Part shown: one piece after another, positions 1,961 through 54,200 of the stretch
Numbering within the stretch: position 1 is the stretch's first letter
Layout: each line of letters starts with the position of its first letter
Origin: a virus
Length of the DNA stretch: 63,171 nt
IMG/VR virus record: IMGVR_UViG_3300031949_000033
Span: 1-63,171 of that record
Strand: one strand, 5' to 3'
The notes under the pieces: generated by a model
Told to the model about the DNA's origin: nothing
Databases searched by the model: none
What the model saw: the letters and a program-made list of their open reading frames with translations, nothing else
Position numbers and translations under genes: made by a program

Positions 1961-3829
1961 CTATCCCGATGTGACTGTCGCTGCGACGGTCCATTCAAAG
2001 GTCTTGGCTGCCACGCCGGTCACGATGACGCGCACCTTCCCGCCGGTCACACCGAAGATGCAGGCAGTGTTCGCGTCGCTCTCCACGGCTGCGATCAGGC
2101 TCGTAATGGTGCCGAGCAACGCGGCGTTCTGGTGACTCAACACCCCGTTTGCCGCCGCACTTCCCCCTGAATCGTCGGTGATTATTTCGTCGTCCTCGAA
2201 TTCGCCGACTATCTCGCGTAGCGTCAGCGTGCCCGTCACGCCCGCATCGGAGTCCGCAGTGATGGTCGCCGTCGCCCCGGAGGTACCTCCGGTCAGGGTA
2301 TCGCCCAGCGTGAAGTTCACGGTTTGCGCGTCGTAGTTGAGCGTCGAGCCTGTCCGATGCGCACCTTGGCAAATCCTGAATATCGCATAGTCGATGACGT
2401 TTTTGCCGTTGGCAATGACCGTCGCATCGACGACGACACGCTCACCCGGCGCCAGATCGTAGGCCCAGGCTTCCGTTACCGTGGCGTCGGTTGTCGTCCC
2501 GGATGGCCCCGGCGCGTCGTCGATCGAACGCCGCGTGCGCATCCAACGCGTCGTGTCGGTCCCCGCCAGCGTCACGGTATCTGACTCCAGGCAGTCCTGG
2601 ATGATGATCGCGTTATCCACCGATGTCAGCGTATAGGTCCCGGCCAAGAACTCCACGCCGTCGAAACAGATGTCCTGACAGGTGCCGGTGAAGGTCATGT
2701 TCGATGAAATCGTGCCGCCGTGTACCTTGAAGTCGACCACCGTATTTTCAGTGAACGCAGAGGTGTCGCTGCCGTCCTCCACGGTAAGGTCCGTCGTGTT
2801 GCCGCTGAACCAGCAGCGACGCCAGAGATCGGTATGACGCGCCCCGATGATCTTGAGTGCGACTCCCGTATTGTCCGTGAAAGCGACGAAATCCAGCCCG
2901 TTATGCCAGACCTTATCGTCGACGTACTTCAACTCCACACCGACCGTCGTGCAGTTCGACACCTCGCCGCCGGACCAGAGATTGTGCGAGAATTCCGCGG
3001 CGTTGCCGTGCAACAGCGCGCCGTTGGTGCAGGTGTCGATCGAGAGATTCTTCCAGTTGTTGCGCTGCCCGCCCAATGCTTCCAGGCCGGTCACGAAGCG
3101 CTTGACGAGAACATTGTCGAGGACGATGTTGTCGATATCCACTGCGGCCACCCCTACCGAGCCGGCCGTCGTCGTCACGCCGTCGAGGGTGATTTCCCTG
3201 AATCCGCCCAGCGCACCGCTGATCGTGTAGACATCCGATCCCGCCGAGCATTGCAGCACGGTTGCCGACCTGCTCGCCCCTTGGACAACAACGTCCGCCG
3301 GTACGGTGGTTGCGTTGTGCCCGTAGGTGCCGGGCGGAATGACAACGATTCCACCGCCGTAGCCTGTTGCCGCTCCTATGGCCGCGTCCAATGTCGTCGT
3401 GTTCGTCGAGGCCGAATAATTGGGGTCGGTCGTCTCGAGGAAAACGCCGAAATCGGTGACATAGACGTAGCGCGCGAACAACGACGCGATGGTGTGTGCA
3501 GCCGATCCCCCGGTCGCCAAGCCGGTTGCCGCGCTGGCGTCTGCCGCCGAAAGGCTCTGAAGCGGTACGCGTATCTCGCCGCTCGTCTCCGTGGTGTTGA
3601 TGTTGAGCTTGTAGTCGACATCGATGTACAGCGGCGCGGCGAATTTACCGTAGGTGACCGACCCCACGGTTTGCGAACTCAGCGTTTGCGGATTGTCCGC
3701 GGCGACCGATAGCGCCTCATCGGTGTACACGCTCGCCAGCGTTGTCGTACCGGCGAGCCATATCTTCACCGTCGCGCCGGCGTATCCGGCCCGCCAGGTA
3801 TCGAATTCAAGTATGCGGTGTGCCGCCAT
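1961..3829 (-). CDS. Tailspike / depolymerase with pectate-lyase-type right-handed beta-helix
   Basis: 622-aa ORF. It has the cap motif TTLDAAIGAATGYGGGIVVIPPGTYG followed by a long G/N/V/T-rich beta-helix-like region (ITLDGV, VLDNVLV, NLSIDTC, GNAAEFSHN). GGGGG RBS lies before ATG 3829. Confidence 0.8.
   Translation of the reverse strand: MAAHRILEFDTWRAGYAGATVKIWLAGTTTLASVYTDEALSVAADNPQTLSSQTVGSVTYGKFAAPLYIDVDYKLNINTTETSGEIRVPLQSLSAADASAATGLATGGSAAHTIASLFARYVYVTDFGVFLETTDPNYSASTNTTTLDAAIGAATGYGGGIVVIPPGTYGHNATTVPADVVVQGASRSATVLQCSAGSDVYTISGALGGFREITLDGVTTTAGSVGVAAVDIDNIVLDNVLVKRFVTGLEALGGQRNNWKNLSIDTCTNGALLHGNAAEFSHNLWSGGEVSNCTTVGVELKYVDDKVWHNGLDFVAFTDNTGVALKIIGARHTDLWRRCWFSGNTTDLTVEDGSDTSAFTENTVVDFKVHGGTISSNMTFTGTCQDICFDGVEFLAGTYTLTSVDNAIIIQDCLESDTVTLAGTDTTRWMRTRRSIDDAPGPSGTTTDATVTEAWAYDLAPGERVVVDATVIANGKNVIDYAIFRICQGAHRTGSTLNYDAQTVNFTLGDTLTGGTSGATATITADSDAGVTGTLTLREIVGEFEDDEIITDDSGGSAAANGVLSHQNAALLGTITSLIAAVESDANTACIFGVTGGKVRVIVTGVAAKTFEWTVAATVTSG
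2138..2344 (-). repeat. 69-aa shared module, copy in tailspike C-terminal region
   Basis: TLNYDAQTVNFTLGDTLTGGTSGATATITADSDAGVTGTLTLREIVGEFEDDEIITDDSGGSAAANGVL. It includes a near-identical 35-nt stretch (atggtcgccgtcgccccggaggtacc.ccggtcag) shared with 4340..4546. Confidence 0.8.
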
Positions 3830-3838
3830 GCTGGCCCC

Positions 3839-4849
3839 CTAGTGCTTCCAGATCCCGCCGTAGGGTCGCCGGCGCATGCCGCCGCCCTCTCCCCAGCGCG
3901 CCGTCCGCCTGCCCTGCGGCGATACTCGTTCGCGGTTGTAGTGCGCCTCCAACTCCTTGAATATCTTGTCGCGCTCCTTTTTGATCCGCTCCAGTTTCTC
4001 TGACTTCAACTGCCGAATCGGGCCGTCGCCGACTTCCAGCGCGGTCGCCGCCACCATCCATTTCTGGACGACGCGATCGAATCCGTGCGCCGTGTCTCCG
4101 GCGCCGGACTGTACGGAGAGGTCCGTCTTCACGGTCTGCGGATAGGTCATCGCGACCAGCCTGAGCGTGGTCGTCGAGTCCGATGGTACCGGGTAGACGA
4201 AGAGGTTTTGCGTGTTGTTCGCCAGACGGTCGATGTAGATCGCCTCGGGGTCGCCCGTTGCCGTCTTGTCCGGTATTTCCTCGTAGACGCCCCTACGGAT
4301 GATTTCGATAGGCGTGATGGCATCGCTCGCCGAGGACGGCGTTCCGTTCGCCGTAGCGCTGCCGCCCGCCGCATCGGTAATGGTTTCATCGTCCTCGAAG
4401 TCGCCAAAGATGCGCCGCAGCGTCAGCGTGCCGGTTGCGCCGTCATCGTCATCGGCGATAATGGTCGCCGTCGCCCCGGAGGTACCGCCGGTCAGCTTGG
4501 AGCCTACTGTAAAGGCCGCGCTCTGCGCATCGTAGTCGAGCGTCGCCGCCTTGCCGATATACGCCTTCATCGGATAGACGACGCCCAGGTCCGGGAAAGC
4601 ATCGCCGGCGATGGTCGAGAGCAGGTAGTTATCGGTATTCGCCGTCAGCACGAACTCTATCGTCTTCGGAATCAGCCACTGGGCGATGGATGTCCCCGCC
4701 AGCGAGGCGATTTCAATCTCCATGAAGTCCAAGGCGATGAGAAGCAGATTCGAATCTGCTCCGGTATCGCTCGGCGAGTAGGCGCCAACCTTGCGCAGCA
4801 CGAGTTCGCACAACTCTCGTGCAGTGTACAAGCTGACCGGCGTCGTCAT
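3839..4849 (-). CDS. Head-to-tail adaptor, P22 gp4-like N-terminus, with an inserted 69-aa module
   Basis: 336-aa ORF. The N-terminus ARELCELVLRKVGAYSPSDTGADSNLLLIALDFMEIEIASL resembles the gp4-type adaptor helix pattern as I recall it. The gene lies between the capsid genes and the tailspike. Confidence 0.5.
   Translation of the reverse strand: MTTPVSLYTARELCELVLRKVGAYSPSDTGADSNLLLIALDFMEIEIASLAGTSIAQWLIPKTIEFVLTANTDNYLLSTIAGDAFPDLGVVYPMKAYIGKAATLDYDAQSAAFTVGSKLTGGTSGATATIIADDDDGATGTLTLRRIFGDFEDDETITDAAGGSATANGTPSSASDAITPIEIIRRGVYEEIPDKTATGDPEAIYIDRLANNTQNLFVYPVPSDSTTTLRLVAMTYPQTVKTDLSVQSGAGDTAHGFDRVVQKWMVAATALEVGDGPIRQLKSEKLERIKKERDKIFKELEAHYNRERVSPQGRRTARWGEGGGMRRRPYGGIWKH
4340..4546 (-). 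repeat. 69-aa shared module, copy inserted in adaptor-like protein
   Basis: ATLDYDAQSAAFTVGSKLTGGTSGATATIIADDDDGATGTLTLRRIFGDFEDDETITDAAGGSATANGT aligns residue for residue with tailspike aa 496-564. Confidence 0.8.
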
Positions 4850-4864
4850 GGCGCGGCCCTACGC

Positions 4865-5476
4865 TTACGCGGCTTGCCGATCGAGCATCTGTGAGCGCGG
4901 GAACATCTTCTCTGACATCGCCGGCGTCATCTGGTCGGCCGTCAGGTCTCCAGAGGCGATCTTCTCGGCAAGTGCGCGCTCGCCATCGGTCATGCCTTTC
5001 TTGGAGCGATTCCACGCCGTCAGGAAATCCGCGAGTTCCTGATCGCTGGCATCCATCGAGACGTTTTCGCTCCCCGGCAGCACCTTGACGCGCCGCAGCA
5101 ACGCCTCGCGGGAGAGTTCGTCATGCTTGACGACGATCTGGTCGTCGGCGAGCACGGTGATCGGTTTGGATGCGTCGTGTTTGCTGATCGGCTCGATCCT
5201 CGTGCCGCTCGGACCCAGCACCTTGAAGGCGGGATCGCAGAGCAACTTCAGGGCGTGCTCCATGGGCATCTTGCAGGGCTTGCCGGAATACAGTTCGTAG
5301 CTCACGAAGTCGAGTACTTCGATGCGACCGTCGACCGTCTTCGCGGTCTTGGTGATGATTTCGTGCTTGCGCGGCTCCTTGCCCCGCTGGTTCAGATCGT
5401 AGACGTGGTATTCCGGTCGCTTCTCGATCTCCGGTTTTCCGTTGTCCTGTTCTTGCTGCGTGGTCTTGGTCGCCAT
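4865..5476 (-). CDS. Hypothetical protein in the head/tail module
   Basis: 203-aa ORF with AAGGAG RBS (cgaaaggagtagttATG). No recognisable motif. Confidence 0.6.
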   Translation of the reverse strand: MATKTTQQEQDNGKPEIEKRPEYHVYDLNQRGKEPRKHEIITKTAKTVDGRIEVLDFVSYELYSGKPCKMPMEHALKLLCDPAFKVLGPSGTRIEPISKHDASKPITVLADDQIVVKHDELSREALLRRVKVLPGSENVSMDASDQELADFLTAWNRSKKGMTDGERALAEKIASGDLTADQMTPAMSEKMFPRSQMLDRQAA

Positions 5477-5494
5477 AACTACTCCTTTCGTTGG

Positions 5495-5521
5495 AAAAAG
5501 CCCACGGCTCGCGCCGTGGGC
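5495..5521 (-). terminator. Rho-independent terminator (minus strand) after the capsid gene pair
   Basis: Minus-strand RNA reads GCCCACGG-cgcgag-CCGUGGGC followed by UUUUU. It lies in the 84-nt gap between genes 5561..6262 and 4865..5476. Confidence 0.6.
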
Positions 5522-5560
5522 ATGAGGTACCGCCTTGCTGCGCCGCCTTGTTGCCTGCGG

Positions 5561-6262
5561 TTAGTCGAGCGTCGGCGTTCCAGTCGTCATCAACAGGTAC
5601 GGCAGGAAGGCATACGCCTCACCCGTGTCCGCACCCGCCGAGAACGTGAACGTCAAGCTGTCTCCGGCCGCGATGTAGTTCGTGATGGCCGTAATGAGCG
5701 CGCCGTCCACGTCCGCCACCAAACCGGTATTGGTCAGCGACACAGCCGACATCAGACCGTCGGCATCGCCGCCGTCGGCGGGCACCACTTCTCCGGTGCC
5801 TACGTCCAGCGTTTCGGTTGCGTCCGCGGTGTGGACTTTCAGGTGAGGCCACGGCAGGAAGATCATCCCGGTAATGTCGTCCATCCCGGTATCGACTTCC
5901 GTATTGTCACTCACCTGATCGTCGATGCTGATCGGAAGGATGAGCATCTGGCTGCGGTTGCCGCGATCCACGGCGATTTCGTTGACTTCATCCGCCCCGA
6001 CGCTCCACAACTGCACGGAGAAACCCTCGCCGGTCAGGATGAACAAATCGACCGCCGTCAACGTGTTGGCCCCCCAGAACTCGCCGCTTCCCCTGGTGAG
6101 GGAAATCGGGTTGCTCAGGGCGGTACCGTCCTCGTTGTACAGCGTCGCCTTCGCCGGATCGCCTGCAGCGGTGACAGTGCATTTGCCGCCGGCGCCCATG
6201 ATTGCCGGGCCGGAGAACGCACCGATGGGACGATCAACCAGTTGGAATTTGTAGTGCAACAT
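5561..6262 (-). CDS. Hypothetical virion protein immediately downstream of the major capsid gene (possible decoration/auxiliary capsid protein)
   Basis: 233-aa ORF with GGGAGGAG RBS. It is followed by a terminator. The functional suggestion rests on position only. Confidence 0.55.
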   Translation of the reverse strand: MLHYKFQLVDRPIGAFSGPAIMGAGGKCTVTAAGDPAKATLYNEDGTALSNPISLTRGSGEFWGANTLTAVDLFILTGEGFSVQLWSVGADEVNEIAVDRGNRSQMLILPISIDDQVSDNTEVDTGMDDITGMIFLPWPHLKVHTADATETLDVGTGEVVPADGGDADGLMSAVSLTNTGLVADVDGALITAITNYIAAGDSLTFTFSAGADTGEAYAFLPYLLMTTGTPTLD

Positions 6263-6277
6263 GATTGTCTCCTCCCT

Positions 6278-7072
6278 TTAGCTTGCCGCGGCCGCAGTCT
6301 TGACCGACACGATCGAATAGTCTTCGACCGCATTGGCGTCATACCTCGACTTGTACTGAGGCTTGAGCATGCCGATGATGCGTGAAATGCCGATGGCCGG
6401 CCGATTTCCGTAGTCGGTGTTGTCCGACTCGTCCATCCCCGGAGTCCCGTCGTCGAGGCTTGCGAACCCCAACGCCTGCGCGCCCATCAGCAAGGCTTGC
6501 GCGCCGTGCACCGTTCCCGTTGCTCCCCACCGGCTCCCTGAATCCAGGCCAAGGGTGTTGTAGACCTTCTGATGGTCGTAGAGAACGACCTCGTTGATGA
6601 TCTTCTTGGCGTTGGCGAACAGCGGGTTGTTCATGCCGCGCGGCATTGCGGTGGCCTGCAGCGTCTTGTAGTCCGCTGTCTTTTCCAGGTCTCTGCATTG
6701 CTCGGTTGACAGAACCAGAATGTAAAACGACTTCCCGCCTTGGCGAACCGGACGAATCCGCTTGCGCTTAGCGAACGCCTTGGCTTGGGTAACAACGTCC
6801 CAGCTCATGGTGTCGGATGTCGTGAACGTCGCCTCCGATGTCGCCGCCCCGGCATACATCAGCCGGTTCGTCGACGCGGCCACAACGTCTGCGGCGAAGC
6901 TGAGCGACGGAATCTGACTGGTGGCGCGCGTCGAGCCGTCTGTGTTGACGGTGAACGCACGGCCAGCCGACATCAGGAACAGAAGCTCGTCGGCCAGATC
7001 TGCAATCCAGAAGGAAAGCGCGTCTTTCGCCTGCACCCGGAACCGCAGCACGGTCGCTTGCTCGGACATTCT
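6278..7072 (-). CDS. Major capsid protein (N4-gp56-type), exon 2
   Basis: Family-like sequence resumes at RMSEQATVLRFRVQAKDALSFWIADLADELLFLMSAG and runs to ...GAQALLMGAQALGFASL...VKTAAAAS. The first 86 codons of ORF 6278..7330 are not protein-like. Confidence 0.8.
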   Translation of the reverse strand, partial: RMSEQATVLRFRVQAKDALSFWIADLADELLFLMSAGRAFTVNTDGSTRATSQIPSLSFAADVVAASTNRLMYAGAATSEATFTTSDTMSWDVVTQAKAFAKRKRIRPVRQGGKSFYILVLSTEQCRDLEKTADYKTLQATAMPRGMNNPLFANAKKIINEVVLYDHQKVYNTLGLDSGSRWGATGTVHGAQALLMGAQALGFASLDDGTPGMDESDNTDYGNRPAIGISRIIGMLKPQYKSRYDANAVEDYSIVSVKTAAAAS

Positions 7073-7396
7073 CAATGTGTTCACCACGAGTCGCTGGTTC
7101 GTGGCCGTTCCGGAAACCGTGAGTTCCGGAACCGCTGCATGTCGCCATACAGAGCAGACTATATCATCGCCCACGTGGGGCGTTGGGTGCTTCGGGCCGC
7201 TTGGCCCTACGAACTTTCGTTCTAGTCGTTGAACCTTACGATGGCATCGTGCATGTCCATCGTCTCGGCTGCTGATTGTCTGGCATGATATCGCCGCCTG
7301 TTCAGTCATGTGAAGTTGGCGGTATACCATGGCAGAGTTCCCAGCAATTCTCCCAATTTACTCTGCGATTTTCCAATCGCAGGGGGCAAAATGTCT
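7073..7396 (-). mobile_element. Putative ORF-less group I intron interrupting the major capsid gene
   Basis: The 5' exon ends in GGU and the insert ends in UUG. GCCC near the intron 5' end can pair with exon GGGU (U.G pair), giving P1. ACAUUUU pairs with 3' exon AGAAUGU, giving P10. Hairpins include GCGAUU-GGAA-AAUCGC, GAAC-GAAA-GUUC, GGGCC-AAGC-GGCCC, UCCGGAA/UUCCGGA, ACGAUGG/CCAUCGU and CCACGA/UCGUGG. There is an in-frame TAA at 7358-7360. Confidence 0.7.
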
Positions 7397-7717
7397 ACCC
7401 TTCGAGCGCACACCATGGCGAAGCTGATCGATGCGTATGGTTTGGGCGTCGGTGATCAGTGTCGCCTCGTTTCCTTCCAGTTGGTTGTCGCCGACGATAC
7501 CCCCTGAGATATCGCCGACCAGCGGGATGACTGCTTGGGTCCCGCGTTCGGTTTTGGTCAACTCGGTGACCTTGTGAATGGGCCTTGAGGCATCATCGGT
7601 GCTACCACCCATGAAACCGTTGGACATGAAGAAGTTGTCGTCTCTGCCTTGCTTCCTTACGGCAAGGCTCCACGCTTTCTTCTGCAGGTCCGTCAAAGCC
7701 CCGAAGTCTGTAAGCAT
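7397..7717 (-). CDS. Major capsid protein (N4-gp56-type), exon 1
   Basis: MLTDFGALTDLQKKAWSLAVRKQGRDDNFFMSNGFMGG...VTELTKTERGTQAVIPLVGDISGGIVGDNQLEGNEATLITDAQTIRIDQLRHGVRSKG matches my memory of the N4-gp56 capsid family N-terminus. GGAGAA RBS. Exons 1 and 2 joined give 371 aa. Confidence 0.8.
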
Positions 7718-19760: not shown

Positions 19761-22700
19761 CAGAGGCGCCCTCCACGCCGGCGCCATGGCTTGGTTCCTG
19801 CCACGCCACGCGCGGTCAATCGCCTCTGCCATTGCGGCGTTGTGTTCAACATGGCCCCCACGGATTCGACGGTGACATATTTCAACGCCAGATACTGTAA
19901 CCCATCGTGACAATTCGAGACGAGCACCCCGTTTGCGTAGAATGTGTGGGTATCCTCGACGGTCAAGTCATAGACGCGCTCTCTTCGACCGTGACAGGGC
20001 TTTACGCCAGCAACCGTTAGAGCATGTTCTGGTGCGTGCGTAGCGGTTGATCTTGAAAGCTGACCCGCAGACTGCACAGCTTCGTTCCTCGTCGTCGACT
20101 CCTGAATCGCGTCTCGCCTTTGACTGACAGGCTGCCGAACAATATCCCTTCTTCGGCGCAAGGGTAACATATCGTTTTTCGCATATCCTGCAAATTCTCT
20201 CCACTGGCTGTCGATTGCTCCAAGCGCGCTTTGCCTGCTCTGCATGCCAACGTCTCCCTTCGTCGCTCGCGTGCCATTGCCTTGCCGCCGGGATAACGCA
20301 GTCGAGCATGTGTCGTTTTGCCTCGTCGGGGTTTTCTCTGACGCGTTTTCGTGAGTGATATGCTGCGTGCGCAGTGTCGCTAAGTAAGTGAAGATTTTCG
20401 ATCGCGTTATGGTCTTTATCTTCGTCGCCGTGATGAATGTCGAACCCGTGAGGGATCGGCCCATTGTGATGCCGCCAAATATCCCGATGCAGATACGTGC
20501 CGCCGAACCTATTGTCGCAACGGTAGTATCCTTCAGGCTTGCGATAATACGTGCGAGCGTTGAAGACAACGGCTTTGTTCTTTCTTGGTCTTCCCATTGT
20601 GCCCCGGCCATCGTTTTCAATACGTCGCCGTATTGTAGTGCATCTGCTCTGACCCTGCCGCGATCCAGGATAAACTCGTGGTCCGCCGTGCAGCACACCG
20701 AATCACAATTTGAGAATCGCACGGTGACGAGGTTGTTAGACATCCTGTTCATCGTCGCCGTTACCCTGCGCGCTCCGTTATGCGTTAGCACCACGTCGCC
20801 GACACTGATCGATTCGATTGGTACACCACCCTCTGCCGTGGCTACGAGCGTGCCCGCGACGAAACAGTGCGAGTATTTGTTTTTGTAAGCCTCATTCTGG
20901 TATCTGGCCTCTCCTGTGACCTGAATGCGCCTATAGTGGTAGCCTCCCTTGAATCCCTTGAGCAATGTTTTCGCGGAACTGTCGATGAGGATGGCCGGTT
21001 CACCGTCGGTCAGTTTGGTGAGAAACCAGGCCACCGCCTCGCGCCGCGGCTGGAATTCGTAGGCTTTGGCCTTCTCCCATTCCCAGTGCCCCTCGTCGAG
21101 AATATCGGCGCAACTGACCTCATCGGACTGCGCCCGCTCTCCAACCTGCGGATCGCAGACGATCCTGTAGCGCCTGTCAACACCGAATCGGTTGGCAAGG
21201 TAGGGCTTCAGAGCGTCGCTCAAAAACGCGCGCAACCCCATACTGCGTTCCCTGGCGCAGCACTCTCCCAATACGAGTAGTTGCCCTTTCGGGCTGCACT
21301 GCCCGGGGACCGCCGCCGGCGACAGTCCGAAGTCCAGGCCGATGTCGATCGGCATGCCTGATATCGGCGTGAGATCGCGTTTCACCCCATGGATTCGCTG
21401 ATTGAATTCCGGGTAACACGGGATGCCGTCAATGACCTTGCCGTAGTTGTTCAGCAGGTAGGTGCTGATCCAGTCCTCGCTCTTGCCGGCGACCAGTTGC
21501 AGCCAGTAGGCCATGCCCATCGGCTGATTGACGACGTTCTCCGCCTCAGGATTCGGGAAGTAACTGCCGTCGATCTTGAGCAGCGCCGGTGGCTGGTCGA
21601 AAAATTCGATGAGCGGTCGATGCACACCGATGCTGGCCAGAACCGCGCGCAGCTTCGCCATCATTTCCTGAATTTCCTTTCCGCGCTCTTCGTCGTCCGG
21701 TCCGACATCCAGGTCGTGCCACCAGTGGTCGTCGTCCATGGAGTTCGTGTCCATGATCACGCCCGCCCAGGTGAACGGAGCACCATCCTTCTTCAGCGGG
21801 AAGCGGCCGACCCGGGCGCTGCCGTCGTCCAATACGAGCTTGTCGAGTTGTCCGGCCTCGTTCAACCATAGCCCGGTCAGGTCCAGCGATTTCAGCTTGC
21901 CGATCGCCGCAGGGTGATCACAGGACATGAAGAGCACTTCCAAATGCATGATGGTGCCGTCGTCCAAAGCAAGCTTGACCGTTGCCTCAATCGGGGCCCC
22001 CCAATTCATCTTGACAACGTCTTCCCCAAACCATGACAAGAACGTGAAAATAGTTGTCGACTCAAGCTGCGGGTAGGTATTACGTATAGCCGCCCAGCGC
22101 GTCCGCCGTATGCCGCGGTCATCCGGTTCCTGCTGGACTGCGCGTAGCGCTATCTCGGCGACGCAGGCGACCGATTTGCCGCTGTTTCCAGTGACGCAGA
22201 TCGAGTCGTTGCGGCGCGTGACGAAAAACCCGGTGGATGTGTGGAAGCAGTATTTCTTGCCGTCCACGGAAGGCACGCGCTCGATGGGTATTTTCCGGCT
22301 GCCGTTGCGGATACCGGCGTATCCTCGCGACGATCCTATCACCCTGTATGACCGACTCCAGCCCGGCTTACGTCCTTCTTGAGTTCCAACCGATGCACGC
22401 CGTCCGCACGCCGAAAACGCGTAGGCGACGAATTCCGCGCAGGCACGATCGGTCGTGTAGTAGCCCCAGTCGCCGTAACCCTGGTCTTCGCTGCCGTCCC
22501 AGCGCAAGCATTCGGCGGCGATGATCTTTAGTTGCGCCGCGCTCGCCTGCCAGTATTTGGCCAAACTCTTGTTGCGCTCCGGCGCTTCGAAGCGAAACGT
22601 GGTTTCGGTAGGACGGTTCGGGTTGTCGTATTCGCTCCATGCGATGCCGGCCATGACAAGCAATTGTCGGACCCGCAATTTTTTGTCGGCGCGACGCACG

Positions 22701-23263
22701 CAGACCGTACAACGCGTCGTTTTTGTGCGCTGCGAAAACGAGCCGTCCGCGCAGACCATGACCATGACGCGCAGCTCGGCGTCGTTGAGGCCGACACCCA
22801 CAGCGTTCTCCGGCGGCGGGAAGCAGCACGGAACCAATCCGGGCCAGCCGTCTTTCAGGTGCTGGTGCTGGAATGCCAAGCCGGCCGCCCTGATTTGCCT
22901 GAGCACGCCGGGTTTGGCTTTGACGAAATACGGGATCAAGTGCTCGTCGCTCGCCATGATGTCGAGCCCGCGCGACTTCAGATGGATGAAAGCGTCGCAG
23001 TCGGCCACGATACGCGAGACCGCCTCGAACCATGAACGGTTGTTCTCCGGGTCGACGACGAGAATTTCCTCGCCTGCCCAGCGATCCATGCGCACCCAGC
23101 CGGTGCGGGTCATAACCTCGTGGTCTGCGGAATTGCACCCGTATGGACCGCGGATACCGCGGATGAACGCGTTGCTCTTGTGAAATCGGGCCGGAGTTTT
23201 CTCGGCGCGGTAGTGGAATCGGAATTCCTGACGCCTGCTGCCGTAGCTTTGGATGGATGTCAT
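19760..23263 (-). CDS. terL: Terminase large subunit precursor (1167 aa) carrying two inteins; mature extein about 531 aa
   Basis: Walker A GPYG/SGKS is split by insert 1. Walker B-like LDLTGLWLNEA is present. The nuclease motif KNKYSH/CHDGLQYL is split by insert 2. The gene lies upstream of the portal. Confidence 0.85.
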   Translation of the reverse strand: MTSIQSYGSRRQEFRFHYRAEKTPARFHKSNAFIRGIRGPYGCNSADHEVMTRTGWVRMDRWAGEEILVVDPENNRSWFEAVSRIVADCDAFIHLKSRGLDIMASDEHLIPYFVKAKPGVLRQIRAAGLAFQHQHLKDGWPGLVPCCFPPPENAVGVGLNDAELRVMVMVCADGSFSQRTKTTRCTVCVRRADKKLRVRQLLVMAGIAWSEYDNPNRPTETTFRFEAPERNKSLAKYWQASAAQLKIIAAECLRWDGSEDQGYGDWGYYTTDRACAEFVAYAFSACGRRASVGTQEGRKPGWSRSYRVIGSSRGYAGIRNGSRKIPIERVPSVDGKKYCFHTSTGFFVTRRNDSICVTGNSGKSVACVAEIALRAVQQEPDDRGIRRTRWAAIRNTYPQLESTTIFTFLSWFGEDVVKMNWGAPIEATVKLALDDGTIMHLEVLFMSCDHPAAIGKLKSLDLTGLWLNEAGQLDKLVLDDGSARVGRFPLKKDGAPFTWAGVIMDTNSMDDDHWWHDLDVGPDDEERGKEIQEMMAKLRAVLASIGVHRPLIEFFDQPPALLKIDGSYFPNPEAENVVNQPMGMAYWLQLVAGKSEDWISTYLLNNYGKVIDGIPCYPEFNQRIHGVKRDLTPISGMPIDIGLDFGLSPAAVPGQCSPKGQLLVLGECCARERSMGLRAFLSDALKPYLANRFGVDRRYRIVCDPQVGERAQSDEVSCADILDEGHWEWEKAKAYEFQPRREAVAWFLTKLTDGEPAILIDSSAKTLLKGFKGGYHYRRIQVTGEARYQNEAYKNKYSHCFVAGTLVATAEGGVPIESISVGDVVLTHNGARRVTATMNRMSNNLVTVRFSNCDSVCCTADHEFILDRGRVRADALQYGDVLKTMAGAQWEDQERTKPLSSTLARIIASLKDTTVATIGSAARICIGIFGGITMGRSLTGSTFITATKIKTITRSKIFTYLATLRTQHITHENASEKTPTRQNDTCSTALSRRQGNGTRATKGDVGMQSRQSALGAIDSQWREFAGYAKNDMLPLRRRRDIVRQPVSQRRDAIQESTTRNEAVQSAGQLSRSTATHAPEHALTVAGVKPCHGRRERVYDLTVEDTHTFYANGVLVSNCHDGLQYLALKYVTVESVGAMLNTTPQWQRRLTARGVAGTKPWRRRGGRL
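19913..20866 (-). mobile_element. Intein 2 (aa 800-1117 of TerL), inserted in the nuclease motif
   Basis: Begins CFVAGTLVATAEGGVPIESISVGDVVLTHNG, contains CTADHEF (block B), and ends VYDLTVEDTHTFYANGVLVSN followed by Cys. The in-frame middle part is not protein-like. Confidence 0.75.
19968..20597 (-). CDS. HNH homing endonuclease ORF nested out of frame inside intein 2
   Basis: MGRPRKNKAVVFNARTYYRKPEGYY...GFDIHHGDEDKDHNAIENLHLLSDTAHAAYH (HNH motif) plus two C-terminal CxxC...CxxxC clusters. The frame is offset by 2 relative to TerL. The full ORF-track extent is 19968..20696. Confidence 0.7.
   Translation of the reverse strand: MGRPRKNKAVVFNARTYYRKPEGYYRCDNRFGGTYLHRDIWRHHNGPIPHGFDIHHGDEDKDHNAIENLHLLSDTAHAAYHSRKRVRENPDEAKRHMLDCVIPAARQWHASDEGRRWHAEQAKRAWSNRQPVERICRICEKRYVTLAPKKGYCSAACQSKARRDSGVDDEERSCAVCGSAFKINRYARTRTCSNGCWRKALSRSKRARL
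22184..23137 (-). mobile_element. Intein 1 (aa 43-360 of TerL) with LAGLIDADG-type endonuclease, inserted in the Walker A P-loop
   Basis: Begins CNSADHEVMTRTGW and has a SDEH block. It carries two LAGLIDADG-like motifs (LRVMVMVCADGSF and IAAECLRWDGSE) and ends FFVTRRNDSICVTGN followed by Ser. Excision restores GPYGSGKS. Confidence 0.75.
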
Positions 23264-48295: not shown

Positions 48296-51200
48296 CTACC
48301 TATCGCTGTTATACAATTCCCCGATTTTCGCTCTTTGTGCTCGCATCTGCTTGGGGACACGTTTTTCCCTCGATTTCGGCCCGATCAACTCGGCTGTTAT
48401 CGCCGCATTTAGCGACTTGTTCGTGATAGTGATGCGCTCGTGATCCGGTCTGCCTTCATTCCAAGCATCGATCTGCGCTTGGGTGGCGTCGATCCGCCGC
48501 TGGTACTCGGTGGCTGCTTTGGCGTCCCTGCGCTCCTCGGCGCGAATCTTCCTGGCATGGGCCACGGCCAGCCGATAGCGATAGGTACGCTTCATTTCGT
48601 TCAGTCCATACGACAGCCGACTTTTCGCGTATTCGGATTCTGTGATTTCGGCGATCTTCCGCGTCCTGGCGCCCAAGCCGCGCATGAGCACGTCCCAGTC
48701 GTTGATCTGGCTCTCATGTATGATCTTGTTGCCGTACTTCTTGCTGCGCAGCCCGCTCTCACGCAAGGCCGATGCCTCGAGCCAATTCTTGATGAAGTTC
48801 GGCGAGGCCGCGGCAATCGCAAGCTTCGGCTCGCCGCGCTGCGACTGTTCCAGCACGCCGCCAGCTCCCAAACCCCGCTTGATCCACAAGTCGAACGGAA
48901 TGCCCAGCATGCTCGCCGGGTCCATGGGACTCGGCAGGATGTCGCCCATGCCGATCCTGCCGCTTATCTCAGGCGCGTGTTTGAAAGACCTGGCGGCGCC
49001 ATAGGATGCAATCTCTGCGGCGCGCGGCGAACCCGTGATCTCGGTCACAAACTGGCGGAACTCAAGCTTCAGGTCTGTGTCAATGTCCCTCGTCGTCTTC
49101 GAGAGCATTTCGATGACTTTGCGGATATTCTCGGCGAACGGGAACGCCCACAAGCCCCCGGTGATCAGAAGCAGCGTCCACATGGCGAGCAGCGCGACTC
49201 TGCCGCGGTTGCCGTGCAGCCCAACCCCCAGCCTCGCGTACAACTCGATGGTCTGCCAACTGAACCCCTTGAACTGAACGATCGGCGCCATCACATGGCG
49301 GCCGGCTTCCGGGCGATTGCCTTTGCCCATTTCGTAATGCGTCTCATAGACGACCCATTCTGCGAAGACTCTGGCGAAGTCCTCTTTGGATGCCTGCCCG
49401 AGTTCACTCGCCGCTAAGGCGTTGTCCTGCAGGATCTCCAGAATCTTCTCGCGCATCCCGGATAATTTGGCGATCCGGTAGGCGGCAATATAAGTCACGA
49501 TCCGGTTGTGCCTCTCGGCGAGCGTGAACATGCTGGCGAGCGCATCGATTGTCTCCCGCGACGCCTTGGAGAGCTTTCTCAACTGTACCTGCCGATGGTA
49601 GGCCGTACCCATCATTTCCATGGTCGCCAGCGGCACGAAGAAGCCTTCGTCTGAGGATAGCTTCATGTCCCGCTGCATGTCCTTCGGCGCCCTGGAGATA
49701 TCGAATACTTCGTCGCTCTTGACCGCGGTGGCGCCGATAATCCCGCCGGCGACGGCACCGGCCGGTCCTGCTGCCCATCCTCCCAAAGCTGCGCCGAGCG
49801 CTGCGCTGCCTGCCAGTCGCATCGCCCCGGCGTTTTTCAGGACCAGCGGATTGATCATGGCAGTCGCTGAGGTGTAGGCGCGCGTCATTTCTAGACCCAC
49901 CCTCCCCGGGCTGGCGAATTGCATCAGGTAGGGCACGGTGATCATCGGAACCTGCGACAGATTGACCATCGCGGTTGAGGGCACCGCCGCCAAGTAATAG
50001 ACGTAGGCGACCTGCCTGAGATACTGGAATTCCTCGGTCGGCGAATTGATGTAGCTGCGGTAGCGTTGCGCGTACTGCCTCAATTTAGGCTTGCCGCTCG
50101 GTATTGCCTGGATCGCCGCGTCCCACTGCGGGGCGAACCGGCGTCTGGCCAGATAGCCGGCCAGCGACACCGTGTAATCGGCAAGCGCACGCTCGAAGTC
50201 GACGCTGTACCCGGCGATGTTTTGAGCGCCGAGGAAGTGCTTTCTGAAACCGCGCTTCTTCAAGGCGATTCTCATTCGTTCTTCGATGTCGTTGCGCACG
50301 GCTTCATCGACGAAGGCCATGCGCATGAGCTGATCGAACGCAGGCATGTCGATCTGCGGCGCCTCGGCACCCGTCACGAGATCGAACGGCTTCGATACCT
50401 CATAGCCTTGGGATGCCGGGAATTCTTTGCGCAAGGCGTCCAAGCGCTTCTGTACGCGGCGCGTCTTGCGCCAGCGCTTGAAGTCTATGCGTGGTTCTTC
50501 GAGCGCCTCGAAATGCGCCGTCCGGTCGTCTTTGCTCACTGCGATACCGACATTGCCGAACCGGGTGAACGGCACATAGCCGCGCCGCTTGCTCTGGTGG
50601 ATTTCCTCAACCTTGTCGGCCAACCATTTCAGTTGATCGCTTTCTACTTTCGGCATGCCAGCCTTGATTGCCGCGAGCACCTGTTTTGCCGTCTTGACGG
50701 TCTTGGGATCGAGTCCGGCCTCAAGCACAAGCTCGGCGATGAAACGATCCAGCGCCTTGTCCATGGCACGCCTGACGCTCCAGTAGGCAGACTTCTGTCG
50801 GTCGGTGAGCGTGATGGTCTCGCCGACCTTTGACAATTGCGCCTGCGGAAACTCGGTATTCTTGGCTGTCGCGACATCTTTACCCTTCCCGTATACCTCC
50901 CCGGCGAGTCGCCCGAGTTCCAGCAAGGCATCGACCGGCCTGCGATCGGCGGCATTCAAGTCCTGATAGCGCCGGTATGTCTCGGCGATCTCGGCGACGA
51001 TTTCATCGCGGAGTTGATACTGCATGCTCTGCGTGCGCTTGACCAGCGTAAAGTCCGAATCGAACGCCGCAATCGTCCGCGGGTGGACCCCGAAGCGCGT
51101 CAGTATCGACAGGTCCACTGTTGGCTCGTATTTACCGGAGGGCTCCGGCAATGCTTCGGTCACGGCTTCCAATGCCGCGTCTTGCTGTTCGGGGCTGAAG

Positions 51201-54200
51201 AGGATGTCCGGGTTCGTTGGGTCGAACGCACCAGTGTTGCCGGTGGCGGACTTAACCTGGGTATTATTCCGCAAGAGCCACGAATCATGTGTTCTTCCAC
51301 CGTCTGGCGCTACATCTTCAAACACGATAGCATCGTAACCTTGTTTGAATGCCTCAGATAGGATTCCTTCGTCCTCAAAGAACCTGTAGATCGCTTTGTC
51401 CTTGTACTTATCCTCTAACTCGTATTTGGCATCTTCGTCGAGATTGACCCACGCATCTTCGGTGGCTAACATCCCTTTGTCTTTTAATGTTGTCCACAGA
51501 CCTTCAACATCACCTACGTCGGTACCAAATTCGCGCAGATCAAGAGGATTGTTGGCTACGGCATACAGAGACGAAACATGGCCGTTTGAATCAGGCGATA
51601 GATCAATGCCATTTGCGTCGGCGATGTCTCGTAATGCTTTTGGTCCAAGATCGGTAATAGATTCGCCACCTTCTTCCGCCAGGATGTCGCTGACAATTTC
51701 ACCGAGAGCGTCATTCTTATCAACTTCAATTTGAAGCGCCTTTAGTTCCGCATATGCCGACGCGGCCGATTCATCGTTTGTTACAAAAATGCCGCCGTCA
51801 AATATATGTCGTTCGGCATCGCTACCGTGATACACCACAAGCGGCCTCCCGCCCGTCTTGCCATCTGCCGTGACGACACTCTTTCCGAACCACCGCTTGA
51901 ACTCCGGCGTCTGCGTCTGGTCCTGCTTCGCGTCTTCTGCGGCATTCATTTTTTCTATAAGAGTGTCCTCCGTTTGCGCCTGTATTCTAGCTATACGCTC
52001 GCTCAGTGGCATCTCTGCTGCGAGAAGCGGCGCCCCAAGATCAACAAACGCGCTCCGCATCAGAGCGGCCTTTATAGTGAGCGGATTTACCCCTTTGGCG
52101 AGCGCAATTGAAACATCAGCGGCCTCTTTTTTTGTTTGACCCGGATAGAACAAAGACTTTCTCAAAGCCGGGTCCTTGCGCGCTGCCGCTTCACGTTCTG
52201 CCATCCTGCGTTTGATAGCATCAAGCGATTCCGGCGTCTGGTCCTGGGAGCGGGAGAATGCCGCTTCGCGCATGGCGTCCAGCTTCTCGCCGTTGCGCTC
52301 AAGCAGGGCGATGCGGTCCTTGGAAACAAATTTGTCGTTTTCAAGGAAACCGACATTACTCGTGTCTTCGGTCTTCTCGTTGTACACATCCCTGCGCAAT
52401 CGCTCACGCACGCCGTTGCCCATAACATCGCTCGGCGCACTGAGAATGGCTTCTTCGTGCGTCGCCCCGGTATAGACCTCGCCGGTTTCCGGGTCGCGCA
52501 CTGCGGCAATACTGCCTTCTGTCGCCCTCTGTTTGGCAAGAATCTGTTCGTATGTATTCTTCTGCCTGCGGCTAAACAGCGTCCCTTGTGTATTAAAGAG
52601 GTCGGCCTGATCTGCCGTCACTTTCTTCCCGGCGCGCGCCTTCTCCGCCTTCCTTTCTTCCGCCGCTTTCTCTTTCTCTGCGGCTTTGGCCTGTTCTTCG
52701 CGCCGTTGCAATGCCTCCGGTGTCGGCTGGTTGAGCAACGGCTGCTCGTCCTGTTTTGTCGCGTATTCAGCTATCGCTTTCGCAATCGCCTCGCGAGCGA
52801 GCTTCATATCCGATACGAACCGCTCTGCGCGAAGGCTGCGCCTGCCCAGCACCGAGTTGACGACGCGCTGGATAAACCGCAGGATTTCCTTCGCCAGTCC
52901 CTGAAACTTTGTCGGATCTATCGCCGCCACGCGCGACCAGAACTGCGGGTCGGTGAAATTCGACCCCACGGCGTCGCCGATCATTTCCTCGGTCACCTTA
53001 TCGACCGGCGCACCAAGCCGTATGCCATAGATGCGACGGAATTCCGCGTGATTGATGAGTACCGGCGCGACAAGGGCGTGCAAATCCTTATAGAGGTCCG
53101 GGCGTTCTGATCGCAGGAAGTGCGTCAGTTCATGCCCGACGATCTGGATGTACGGATGCTTGGTATCGACGGAGACGAAGATGAATTTGTCCCAGCCGGG
53201 CTCGCGCAGAACAGCGCCATTCAGGCGGTACGCTTCGCCGAACTCGACCCACACGACCTCTTTGTTGTGGTGCCTGGCGATTTCTTCGGCGAGGCTGGCG
53301 TCATCCGTTCCGGGCGATGCCACTGCCCTGACTATCGCCTCAGGGTGAGCGATCTTGCGCAACGCCTCTTGAAGTCTGCCGGCCGCGCCATGCCCAGTCA
53401 GCGCTCGGCCACCTGGGGCTGTCTCGCTTCCGCGCTGCTCCTTCGAGAACGGAACATCGGGCAGTTCTTCATCCTCTTCCGGCAACGGTCCCTGCAGGTC
53501 TCCGGGCTCCTCTTCGACCGCGCGGCGGTTTTCGTCCTCGATCTCGGCCCTGATCCTGGCTTCCTCGGCGAGTTCTTCTTCGTATTTCTTGCTGTGAACA
53601 GACCAGTGTTTGCGCAGTCCCATCAATTCGTCGCGGATGCGTTCGCTCAACAGATTGATGGCGCCGTTGTCGCCTGCGCTGTCGATGTCATCCTGCAGGA
53701 TGTAGCTGAGGTCAGGCGAACTCAAGTCGACGGCCAAGTTGTCCAGCGTGTTGCCGTCCTCGCGAAACAGATTCCCGAGACCTGGAATGAACTGCTGGCC
53801 GTTACGTTCTCCCGTCAGGTCGCTGCGCTCGCGGTTCGTGATTCCGCCCATCTTGGCGACCGCCACGAGAATCGAGTCGCGATCAACATCGACAACCTTC
53901 CTGCGCTTGGCTGCCGCGACCTGCGCTGGCGAGGGTGGCCGATTGGCAATCTCGTCTCGCCGGTTCAATTCGTCCTGCGCGACACCCGCATTGGGTCCGG
54001 GACCGGCCGTCAAGCGCTGGAGGATCTGCTTGTTGATCCTGTTTGCCGGGCGCCTCGTGCCGTCCGGTGCGACGAGATAGCCTATTTTTTCCTTGCGTGG
54101 ACCCTCAGCAGCGGGTTGCTCTTCTTCTTGCGCGGGGCGCCCTCCGGGTGCGCTGCCGACATCGGCCGGTTCCTGTGGCTCGCGTTGTAGATAGCCGCCG

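Follow-up and report, generated by a model that had tools for sequence, protein, structure and literature searches.

Splicing of a group I intron in the capsid gene of LittleE, a Cluster J mycobacteriophage, was verified by reverse transcription PCR (RT-PCR) and N-terminal protein sequencing (PMC3706429). The same paper cites a capsid intron in the lactococcal phage Tuc2009 and describes a BAKA tail-gene intron without the endonuclease open reading frame (ORF) that the LittleE copy carries. The S-PM2 psbA intron is a documented ORF-less phage intron (PMC3984707), and ORF-less or defunct introns of this kind can be moved in trans, protecting the host allele (PMC3984707, PMC2790892, PMC6083498). 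A single lysin-gene site in Streptococcus thermophilus phages holds both copies with an ORF and shortened ones without it (Foley et al. 2000, as cited in PMC8541194). PhiPA3 gp210 is an HNH nickase within a group I intron of an essential conserved gene; it is used in phage competition, and competitors escape through point mutations at the homologue of the insertion site (PMC11620839). Group I introns that sit in phage capsid genes, or that lack an ORF, have been documented before; new here are the host lineage and the capsid family. We describe a 324-nt insert at 7073..7396 on the minus strand of a 63,171-nt viral stretch (IMG/VR record IMGVR_UViG_3300031949_000033, positions 1 to 63,171), hereafter the window. 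The insert interrupts the one major capsid gene seen in the phage, after codon 107 and before codon 108. We conclude with high confidence that it is a compact group I intron of subgroup IA, predicted to be self-splicing, with P7.1/P7.2 and P9.1/P9.2 hairpins, and that it belongs to a mobile family of capsid introns.

Results

The major capsid gene is split by 324 nucleotides

A preliminary description of the window, made from its letters, had reported a capsid gene broken into two ORFs by an ORF-less group I-like intron. Both minus-strand ORFs, 7358..7717 (119 aa) and 6278..7330 (350 aa), were found. Exon 1 (7397..7717, minus strand) carries codons 1–107, ends ...AAG GGU, and matches residues 1–107 of uninterrupted homologues without a gap. 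Exon 2 (6278..7072, minus strand) begins AGA AUG UCC and carries codons 108–371 and the stop, as defined by the joined ORF and the homologue alignment. In that alignment capsid-like sequence breaks off at ...GVRSKG and picks up at RMSEQ..., as described. The exon-1 frame is closed by an in-frame TAA at 7358..7360, 12 codons into the insert, and the bases expected at the splice sites are present (5′ exon end AAGGGU, insert end CAUUG). Deletion of 7073..7396 yields the predicted continuous 371-aa ORF. Two profiles identify this spliced product as a capsid protein: Pfam PF13252 Phage_capsid_3 (135.4 bits, cut-off 23) and NCBIfam TIGR04387 "N4-gp56 family major capsid protein" (64.7 bits, cut-off 60). 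The nearest isolates by capsid are the Kochitakasuvirus Pseudomonas phages KPP25 and phiR18 (39%), Acidovorax AP1, and the Bcep22 group, at 29–39% identity overall; N4 itself is not among them, which corrects an N4-like impression. The public gene call on this contig, P0070 (263 aa), spans exon 2 only. The scan of 64 other window ORFs, the 2838-aa ORF not among them, revealed no second capsid gene. Because exon 1 alone stops after 12 extra codons and only one capsid gene was seen, it is a sound inference that virion production would depend on splicing of the capsid pre-mRNA.

Alignment with uninterrupted capsid genes places the junction between KG and RMSEQ to the nucleotide, where the preliminary description had put it. 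Sixteen uninterrupted homologues are gapless across ...GVRSKGRMSEQ..., and the matches listed include about 120 uninterrupted capsids that are 63–97% identical to the spliced product. All of those aligned read ...GV(R/K)SKG(R/K)M(S/A)EQ... without a gap, so the homologues have no residues at the insert position that could match a frameshifted reading. The closest uninterrupted capsid listed is P0001 from a groundwater metagenome (loci L003, L004, and L008). P0001/L003 is 97% identical to the window in protein and 95.7% in DNA, and it is colinear with the window's two exons, lacking exactly the 324 nt between them. Among the 120 best-scoring homologues listed (at least 63% identity), the only split capsid is that of this contig, and no interruption was found in the 77 viral-contig capsid relatives recovered by protein search. 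Interrupted sibling alleles surfaced only when the exon-1 ORF was used as the protein query.

The insert is a group I intron of subgroup IA

The Rfam covariance-model search proposed in the preliminary description was run and was positive. RF00028 Intron_gpI matched 7135..7406 (minus strand) with 61.9 bits against a gathering score of 50 (E 2.7e-13 for the whole 63-kb window). The match covers model positions 1–253 of 253, and Intron_gpI is the sole Rfam family matched in the window. The unconstrained minimum free energy (MFE) fold of the 324 nt has an energy of -126.8 kcal/mol compared to -97.5 ± 5.1 for shuffled sequences (z -5.74), and none of 100 shuffles folds as well. This fold recovers P2, P3, P4, P5-P5b, P6-P6a, P7.1, P7.2, P8, P9, P9.1, and P9.2. 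The features that define a group I intron are present: the exon-terminal U is paired U.G with an internal guide (P1), the insert ends in G at 7073 with a junction that restores the capsid frame, and the core contains P3–P8 including the P3/P7 pseudoknot. The extra P7.1/P7.2 hairpins are a criterion for subgroup IA (PMC3984707); the intron is assigned to IA because both sit between the P7 5′ strand and the P3 3′ strand. Its likeness to T4-type and T7-type phage introns is no more than a lead toward IA2 over IA1 or IA3. The Rfam match, the complete P1–P9.2 fold, and the covariation described below establish the group I identity that had been proposed from hand-drawn pairings. The hairpins named at that time are all present and correspond to P2, P6a, P7.1, P7.2, P9.1, and P9.2.

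The helices map onto the minus strand as follows. P1 (7384..7400) pairs exon GGGU (7397..7400) with the guide GCCC (7384..7387), with U.G at the splice site. The adjoining ACAUUUU (7388..7394) is perfectly complementary to the start of the 3′ exon, AGAAUGU (7066..7072), and forms the guide strand of P10; both pairings had been drawn correctly beforehand. P2 (7365..7380) is the hairpin GCGAUU-GGAA-AAUCGC, and its GNRA loop is found in all five cleanly aligned sibling introns. The UAA that ends the exon-1 frame (7358..7360, located by reading-frame inspection) falls in J2/3 directly before P3, and this frame closes ahead of the P3 strand in eight of eight capsid introns examined. P3 (7183..7356; UUGGG 7352..7356 with CCCAA 7183..7187) appears in the MFE fold and encloses P4–P6, the P7 5′ strand, P7.1, and P7.2. 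The segment 7270..7346 folds into P4 (UGCUGG/UCAGCA), P5 (UCUG/CAGA), and the P5a-P5b extension (7283..7332), and the P4/P5 3′ strand CAGACAAUCAGCAGCC was found again in 59 viral contigs. P6 (GCC/GGU) and the P6a hairpin ACGAUGG...CCAUCGU (7238..7263) occupy 7233..7269 in the fold. The P7 pseudoknot (7157..7227) pairs GACUA (7223..7227) with UAGUC (7157..7161) and flanks P7.1 (GAAC-GAAA-GUUC, 7211..7222), P7.2 (GGGCC-AAGC-GGCCC, 7194..7207), P3′, and P8 (7168..7182); this stretch is about 80% identical to introns in other phage genes. P9 (7135..7152, GCGA loop), P9.1 (7107..7132), and P9.2 (7084..7104) make up 7084..7152. The 3′ tail UGAACACAUUG (7073..7083) ends in the terminal G (7073), and its motif GAACA(C/U)A..G is kept in all complete siblings.

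Sibling introns occupy one codon block of the capsid gene

The search with the exon-1 ORF protein returned truncated capsid N-termini of 107–124 aa on other contigs with introns in their DNA. Four insertion points are represented. Site A, after GGU of Gly107 (...AAGGGU in the window), is the window's own nucleotide position and is shared by L108, L109, L112/L113, L115, L116, L134, L137, and L152. Site B lies 15 nt upstream, after AAC GGU (L110/L111), and site C lies 13 nt upstream, splitting GGG GU from A (L114). Site D is 18 nt downstream of site A, after CAG GCU (L120/L122/L159). The L134 and L137 capsids are only 29–37% identical to the window capsid. The introns of L112/L113 and L110 gave full-model Rfam matches of 40.4 and 33.2 bits (E 3e-7 and 4e-5), below the cut-off as expected because an ORF splits the fold.

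L137 (IMGVR_UViG_3300009509_000413, ~3440..3740) holds a second compact ORF-less intron, of ~295 nt, at the same capsid site. It begins AGAUUUUGCCUC, its guide matches its own exon GGAGGU, and its capsid is 31–37% identical to that of the window.

Covariation was assessed in six capsid introns that are 57–69% identical. ORF bodies were replaced by a tetraloop, 8 nt of each exon were kept, and P1–P9.2 were mapped onto the alignment columns with P7 as a pseudoknot, giving 65 pairs in 13 helices. Standard pairs fill 97.4% of the cells for these 65 pairs compared to 32–42% when the partners are slid by 1–3 columns. Changes on both sides occur in 33 of 65 pairs compared to 3–9 in the slid controls, and none of 500 shuffles reaches any observed covariation measure. 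Three to five covarying pairs were found in each of P2 (5/6), P3 (4/5), P7.1 (3/4), P7.2 (4/5), P8 (3–4), and P9.1 and P9.2 (4–5 each); two of the five P7 pairs have compensatory changes, and P4 and P5 are invariant in the six introns. The P1 guide covaries with the exon: site A has GGGU/GCCC, site B has CGGU/GCCG, and L115 has AGGU/GCCU. All six introns keep the U.G pair, and the outermost P1 pair changes on both sides (GC, CG, AU) as the exon differs. The 7-bp P10 is peculiar to the window copy; it needs the AGA Arg codon, which is derived compared to CGC/CGG in relatives.

Siblings encode an HNH endonuclease where the window intron has a stub

The complete ORF-bearing siblings are 809–965 nt long and contain ORFs of 188–253 aa on the capsid strand that are 50–58% identical to each other: L109 1861..2622, L111 4422..5177, L114 1946..2686, L112 4368..4976, and L115 673..1239. 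Pfam gave no match to the sibling intron ORFs at E 0.01, and PHROGs identified them as phrog_2255 "HNH endonuclease" (E 1.9e-14) and phrog_1035 "endonuclease VII" (1e-9). One or two N-terminal CxxC...HxCxxC modules precede a catalytic half, C.CC.ET...LTLDH..N.G...QVLCYNCNISK, that matches annotated HNH endonucleases of isolated phages with 33–50% identity in tblastn. The sibling ORF begins in the P5 loop, reads D-N-Q-Q-P-S through the ribozyme strand CAGACAAUCAGCAGCCAAG (P5′-P4′-P6), fills the P6 loop, and ends E-G-S-T-T through P6′-J6/7-P7. Overlap of an ORF with the intron core is a known arrangement (PMC3984707). The public gene call in L112 is a spurious opposite-strand ORF, and the real one lies on the capsid strand.

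The same place and frame in the window are occupied by a 16-codon stub (7236..7286, minus strand; translated MPDNQQPRRWTCTMPS and then stop). It reads AUG CCA GAC AAU CAG CAG CCG, nine further codons, and UAA, and it corresponds to the start of the sibling ORFs (M..DNQQPS...); the short P6a stands where the siblings have the ~650-nt ORF body. The earlier statement that the insert has no protein-like coding holds in that there is no full ORF, and it needs amending for this stub. The statement that the intron has no homing endonuclease is correct for the window copy, which lacks the encoded enzyme that marks a homing intron. No HNH, GIY-YIG, LAGLIDADG, or other homing-endonuclease domain was found in the 64 other ORFs scanned. 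The window intron is therefore not autonomously mobile. Its ORF-less state represents one phase or variant of a mobile intron family because siblings at the same site carry the HNH endonuclease.

The invariant strand CAGACAATCAGCARCCRAG is present in 59 IMG/VR contigs, 57 of which have the matching P4 strand upstream. The DNQQPS-HNH ORF is carried by eight of the 59, all in capsid genes of this family, and ~36 are compact with a window-like P4′-P7′ spacing (101–136 nt; 119 in the window). Introns with this invariant P5′-P4′-P6 strand occur in psbA (Photo_RC; L121, L153, L158), in nrdD (L163, L165, L176), in a T7-type RNA polymerase gene (L142), and at another position in a Phage_capsid_3 gene (L166). 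Judging from this shared core, the ribozyme clade of the window intron is widespread in viral metagenomes and mostly unannotated. The 3′ core of the window intron is ~75–83% identical to DNA polymerase or primase-helicase introns of Xanthomonas MK21, E. coli ULINTec6, and others. Its 5′ half and P9 tail have no close match in isolated phages, and its exact P1-P2 31-mer has no match in IMG/VR. In a metagenome scan the 20-mer GAGTAAATTGGGAGAATTGC matched two contigs, but the sequence around neither match resembles an intron, and both were dismissed as chance; the window's own contig did not appear in this collection.

Synonymous differences cluster at the insertion sites

Two marks of a homing intron were found, sporadic presence in close relatives and clustered differences at the flanks; co-conversion is our interpretation of the clusters. 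Twelve of the 48 nucleotide differences between the window and the uninterrupted L003 lie within 28 nt across the junction (spliced positions 303–330), and all are synonymous. The patch is flanked by 86 and 61 nt identical to the window. The hypergeometric P is 2e-10, and none of 20,000 random placements gives such a cluster anywhere in the gene. In the L003/L004/L008 allele the patch (gene 303-330, locus 3303-3330; window 7063..7415) reads CAC GGG GTA CGG TCA AAA GGA CGT ATG AGT. Polarization with outgroups indicates that about eight changes are derived in L003, many of them to rare A/T-ending codons (GTA, TCA, AAA, GGA, CGT, AGT). The window has its own derived changes at GGT(102), GGT(107, the U at -1), and AGA(108, the P10 partner). 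The recoded L003 patch could be an endonuclease-escape allele or a co-conversion scar.

A second pair of alleles gave a similar result. L110, with an intron at site B (4313..5277), is 97.8% identical to the uninterrupted L117 (4001..5116), and seven of their 25 differences fall in the 16 nt directly 3′ of the intron, all synonymous (P 1e-8). L110 reads GTA CGC AGC AAA GGG AGG compared to GTG CGC TCC AAG GGC CGC in L117, and here the patch lies in the intron-bearing allele. Such clusters are the mark expected of homing, and we interpret them as probable short-tract co-conversion or endonuclease escape. Co-conversion and trans-homing have precedents (PMC3984707, PMC2790892), as do target-site escape mutations against an intron-encoded HNH enzyme (PMC11620839). 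Adaptation to P10 was considered as a cause of the patches and rejected, as it fits the window's AGA codon only and not the L003 or L110 patches.

Discussion

A proposed pathway for splicing and spread

The proposed steps follow the established group I pathway. The capsid pre-mRNA would fold so that exon GGGU pairs with the guide GCCC in P1, with the U.G pair at the cleavage site. An external guanosine would attack after U(-1), and the 3′ exon AGAAUGU would be held in line by ACAUUUU in P10. The freed 3′-OH of exon 1 would then attack after the terminal G (7073) to give the mRNA for the 371-aa capsid protein. The UAA 12 codons into the intron would halt ribosomes ahead of the catalytic core. 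The family targets one conserved capsid codon block in related phages, and the P6 loop of many members holds an ORF for a putative nicking-type homing endonuclease of the HNH (EndoVII-like) kind. Spread is most likely at the DNA level: in a co-infected cell the endonuclease would cut capsid alleles that lack the intron, and their repair from the copy that has it would co-convert a few flanking codons. The window copy would either have lost its ORF or never have had one. It could persist because its splicing would be clean and it splits the presumed endonuclease target, and for the latter reason immunity to the sibling enzymes is expected. A sibling's enzyme could also move the window intron in trans, in the way that MobE mobilizes the defunct nrdB intron of T4 (PMC2790892) and as happens in collaborative homing (PMC3984707).

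Alternative explanations

The opposite possibility is a relic, an intron that has decayed and no longer splices, in a capsid gene that is a pseudogene of a defective or minority phage genome. Splicing is deduced from a metagenome assembly, an endonuclease-free copy is at the stage of the homing cycle where decay is expected, and the sibling L109 has a mismatch in P7. However, every helix of the window intron is intact, and all its cells pair in the covariation table. It scores against the full Rfam model, its U(-1) and terminal G are in place, and its 7-bp P10 pairs perfectly. Neither capsid exon has a frameshift or a stop, most of their differences from the closest allele are synonymous, and the 63-kb contig is as large as a genome and carries a complete structural module. 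A relic is therefore improbable. Far more improbable still is that an assembly chimera, or an insertion of some other sort (a group II intron, an insertion sequence, intein-coding DNA, or a frameshift region), accounts for the 324 nt, a suspicion that the metagenome origin and the initial hand-drawn pairings might raise. Independent assemblies from other samples hold homologous introns at the identical nucleotide position, group I is the sole Rfam match, the 64 ORFs scanned include neither a transposase nor a reverse transcriptase, and the homologues lack residues at the insert position. An intein is precluded because stops occur in the exon frame. The homologues, Rfam, and the sibling introns together led us to reject a frameshift or sequencing error, an intein, a group II intron, and an assembly chimera.

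The question on which the evidence is most evenly divided is the origin of the ORF-less state, where loss of the ORF and its original absence are nearly even. We put at somewhat below even the chance that the ORF-less copy is ancestral and not a deletion derivative, the ribozyme having reached the capsid site by reverse splicing into GGGU-like sequence or through trans-acting endonucleases, with the HNH ORF later invading the P6 loop of some siblings. An ORF-less ancestor is favored because the clade is mostly ORF-less (of 59 copies, ~36 are compact and spaced like the window's, and just eight have the HNH ORF) and because the DNQQP codons are ribozyme core sequence and so give no sign of a lost ORF. 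L137, likewise compact and ORF-less, occupies the window's site in a divergent capsid gene, and the neighboring sites end in GGU or GCU with matching guides, as reverse splicing predicts. Loss of the ORF is favored because the capsid lineage is rich in ORF-bearing copies: all eight in IMG/VR and those of L109, L110, L114, and L115 are in capsid genes. The sibling ORFs are orthologous across sites and have diverged about as much as the ribozymes, suggesting that the ORF is old in the capsid lineage, and the window keeps an AUG at the place and in the frame of the siblings' start codon. The stub may be what is left of a lost ORF, or it may be no more than core sequence.

Several points weigh against our interpretation of the locus as an active member of a mobile family. 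Splicing, its guanosine dependence, and its efficiency are deduced from sequence. P7 is judged as a whole helix and not by its G-binding pair singly. P10 is strong in this copy only and overlaps nucleotides able to extend P1, so that its role is presumptive. The closest sibling, L108, is represented by only the first 68 nt of its intron. The direction of ORF change may run the other way, given that compact copies are the clade majority and the stub may be core. Ordinary patch recombination could yield the synonymous patches, and the target site of the sibling endonucleases is presumed. Since the contig is a metagenome assembly, there is some residual chance that it is a defective or minority variant.

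A broader picture is possible but tentative, and we consider it rather doubtful as a whole. The codon block ...QLRHGVRSKG/RMSEQA... (slash at the junction) may be a phage battleground of HNH-intron homing, escape by silent recoding as in L003, and ORF-less copies that act as cheap immunity cassettes. Within 33 nt the ribozyme would have hopped to no fewer than four positions that follow GGU or GCU, its guide being re-tuned each time, in shifts of the reverse-splicing type. The occurrence of the ribozyme at four or more positions with re-tuned guides suggests that such shifts may take place in a bacterial virus.

Significance and the wider genome

The window adds an uncultured, GC-rich lineage of proteobacterial type to the short list of phages with a splicing-dependent main structural protein. 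One codon block holds a natural series: introns with the ORF and one without it, alleles that lack the intron, a recoded allele, and shifted sites. This series, with four insertion points and re-tuned guides, lifts the case above routine and opens the homing cycle, the length of co-conversion tracts, escape from the endonuclease, and guide re-tuning to tests with synthetic DNA. In GC-rich hosts the 324-nt ribozyme, which is compact and has a strong P1 and P10, could find use as a splicing cassette. Capsid-based classification, marker-gene surveys, and structure prediction are broken in this phage group because unrecognized introns leave fragments, such as the 263-aa P0070 and the 107–124-aa sibling stubs.

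Three further observations concern the rest of the genome. The 1167-aa ORF at 19763..23263 (minus strand) carries an intein, with Pfam Intein_splicing, Hint_2, and PT-HINT at residues ~800–1117, and thus the genome has two different self-splicing elements. The ~318-aa insert exceeds the size of a mini-intein and may hold an endonuclease or linker domain, and the extein gave no Pfam match. The 2838-aa ORF (48296..56812, minus strand) is in the structural region and may bear on an N4-like virion RNA polymerase. The genome is 60.4% GC and yields long spurious antisense ORFs, such as 5123..6385 (plus strand, 420 aa) opposite the capsid exon 2 region, and naive ORF lists are misleading here.

Comparison with known systems

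The T4-type group IA introns (td, nrdB, nrdD/sunY) and the DNA polymerase and primase introns of T7-like phages belong to the same ribozyme class as the window intron. They share P7.1/P7.2 between P7 and P3′, P9.1/P9.2 tails, and an early in-frame stop. The difference is the host gene, which encodes a virion structural protein in the window and not a protein of nucleotide metabolism or replication. LittleE, BAKA, and Tuc2009 resemble the window in having a group I-type intron in a highly expressed structural gene, but the phages, capsid family, and intron sequences are unrelated, and splicing in the window is a prediction from DNA. In LittleE the ORF is LAGLIDADG-like and lies on the opposite strand; those of the window's siblings are HNH and lie on the coding strand. 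Collaborative homing of the cyanophage S-PM2 psbA intron by the free-standing F-CphI, and mobilization of the defunct nrdB intron in trans by T4 MobE, are examples of an ORF-less or defunct intron at the cut site of a separately encoded endonuclease. Unlike these, the window has no free-standing endonuclease among the 64 ORFs scanned, and the candidate enzyme is inside sibling introns of other phages. Both ORF-containing and short forms occur at one site in the S. thermophilus lysin intron, as in the capsid family; the gene and ribozyme lineage differ, and for the capsid short form an origin by deletion is close to an even chance. The escape of PhiPA3 gp210 competitors parallels the synonymous recoding in the intron-less L003. 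The PhiPA3 target is a jumbo-phage RNA polymerase gene, whereas the predicted target of the putative capsid HNH enzymes is a conserved codon block of the major capsid gene.

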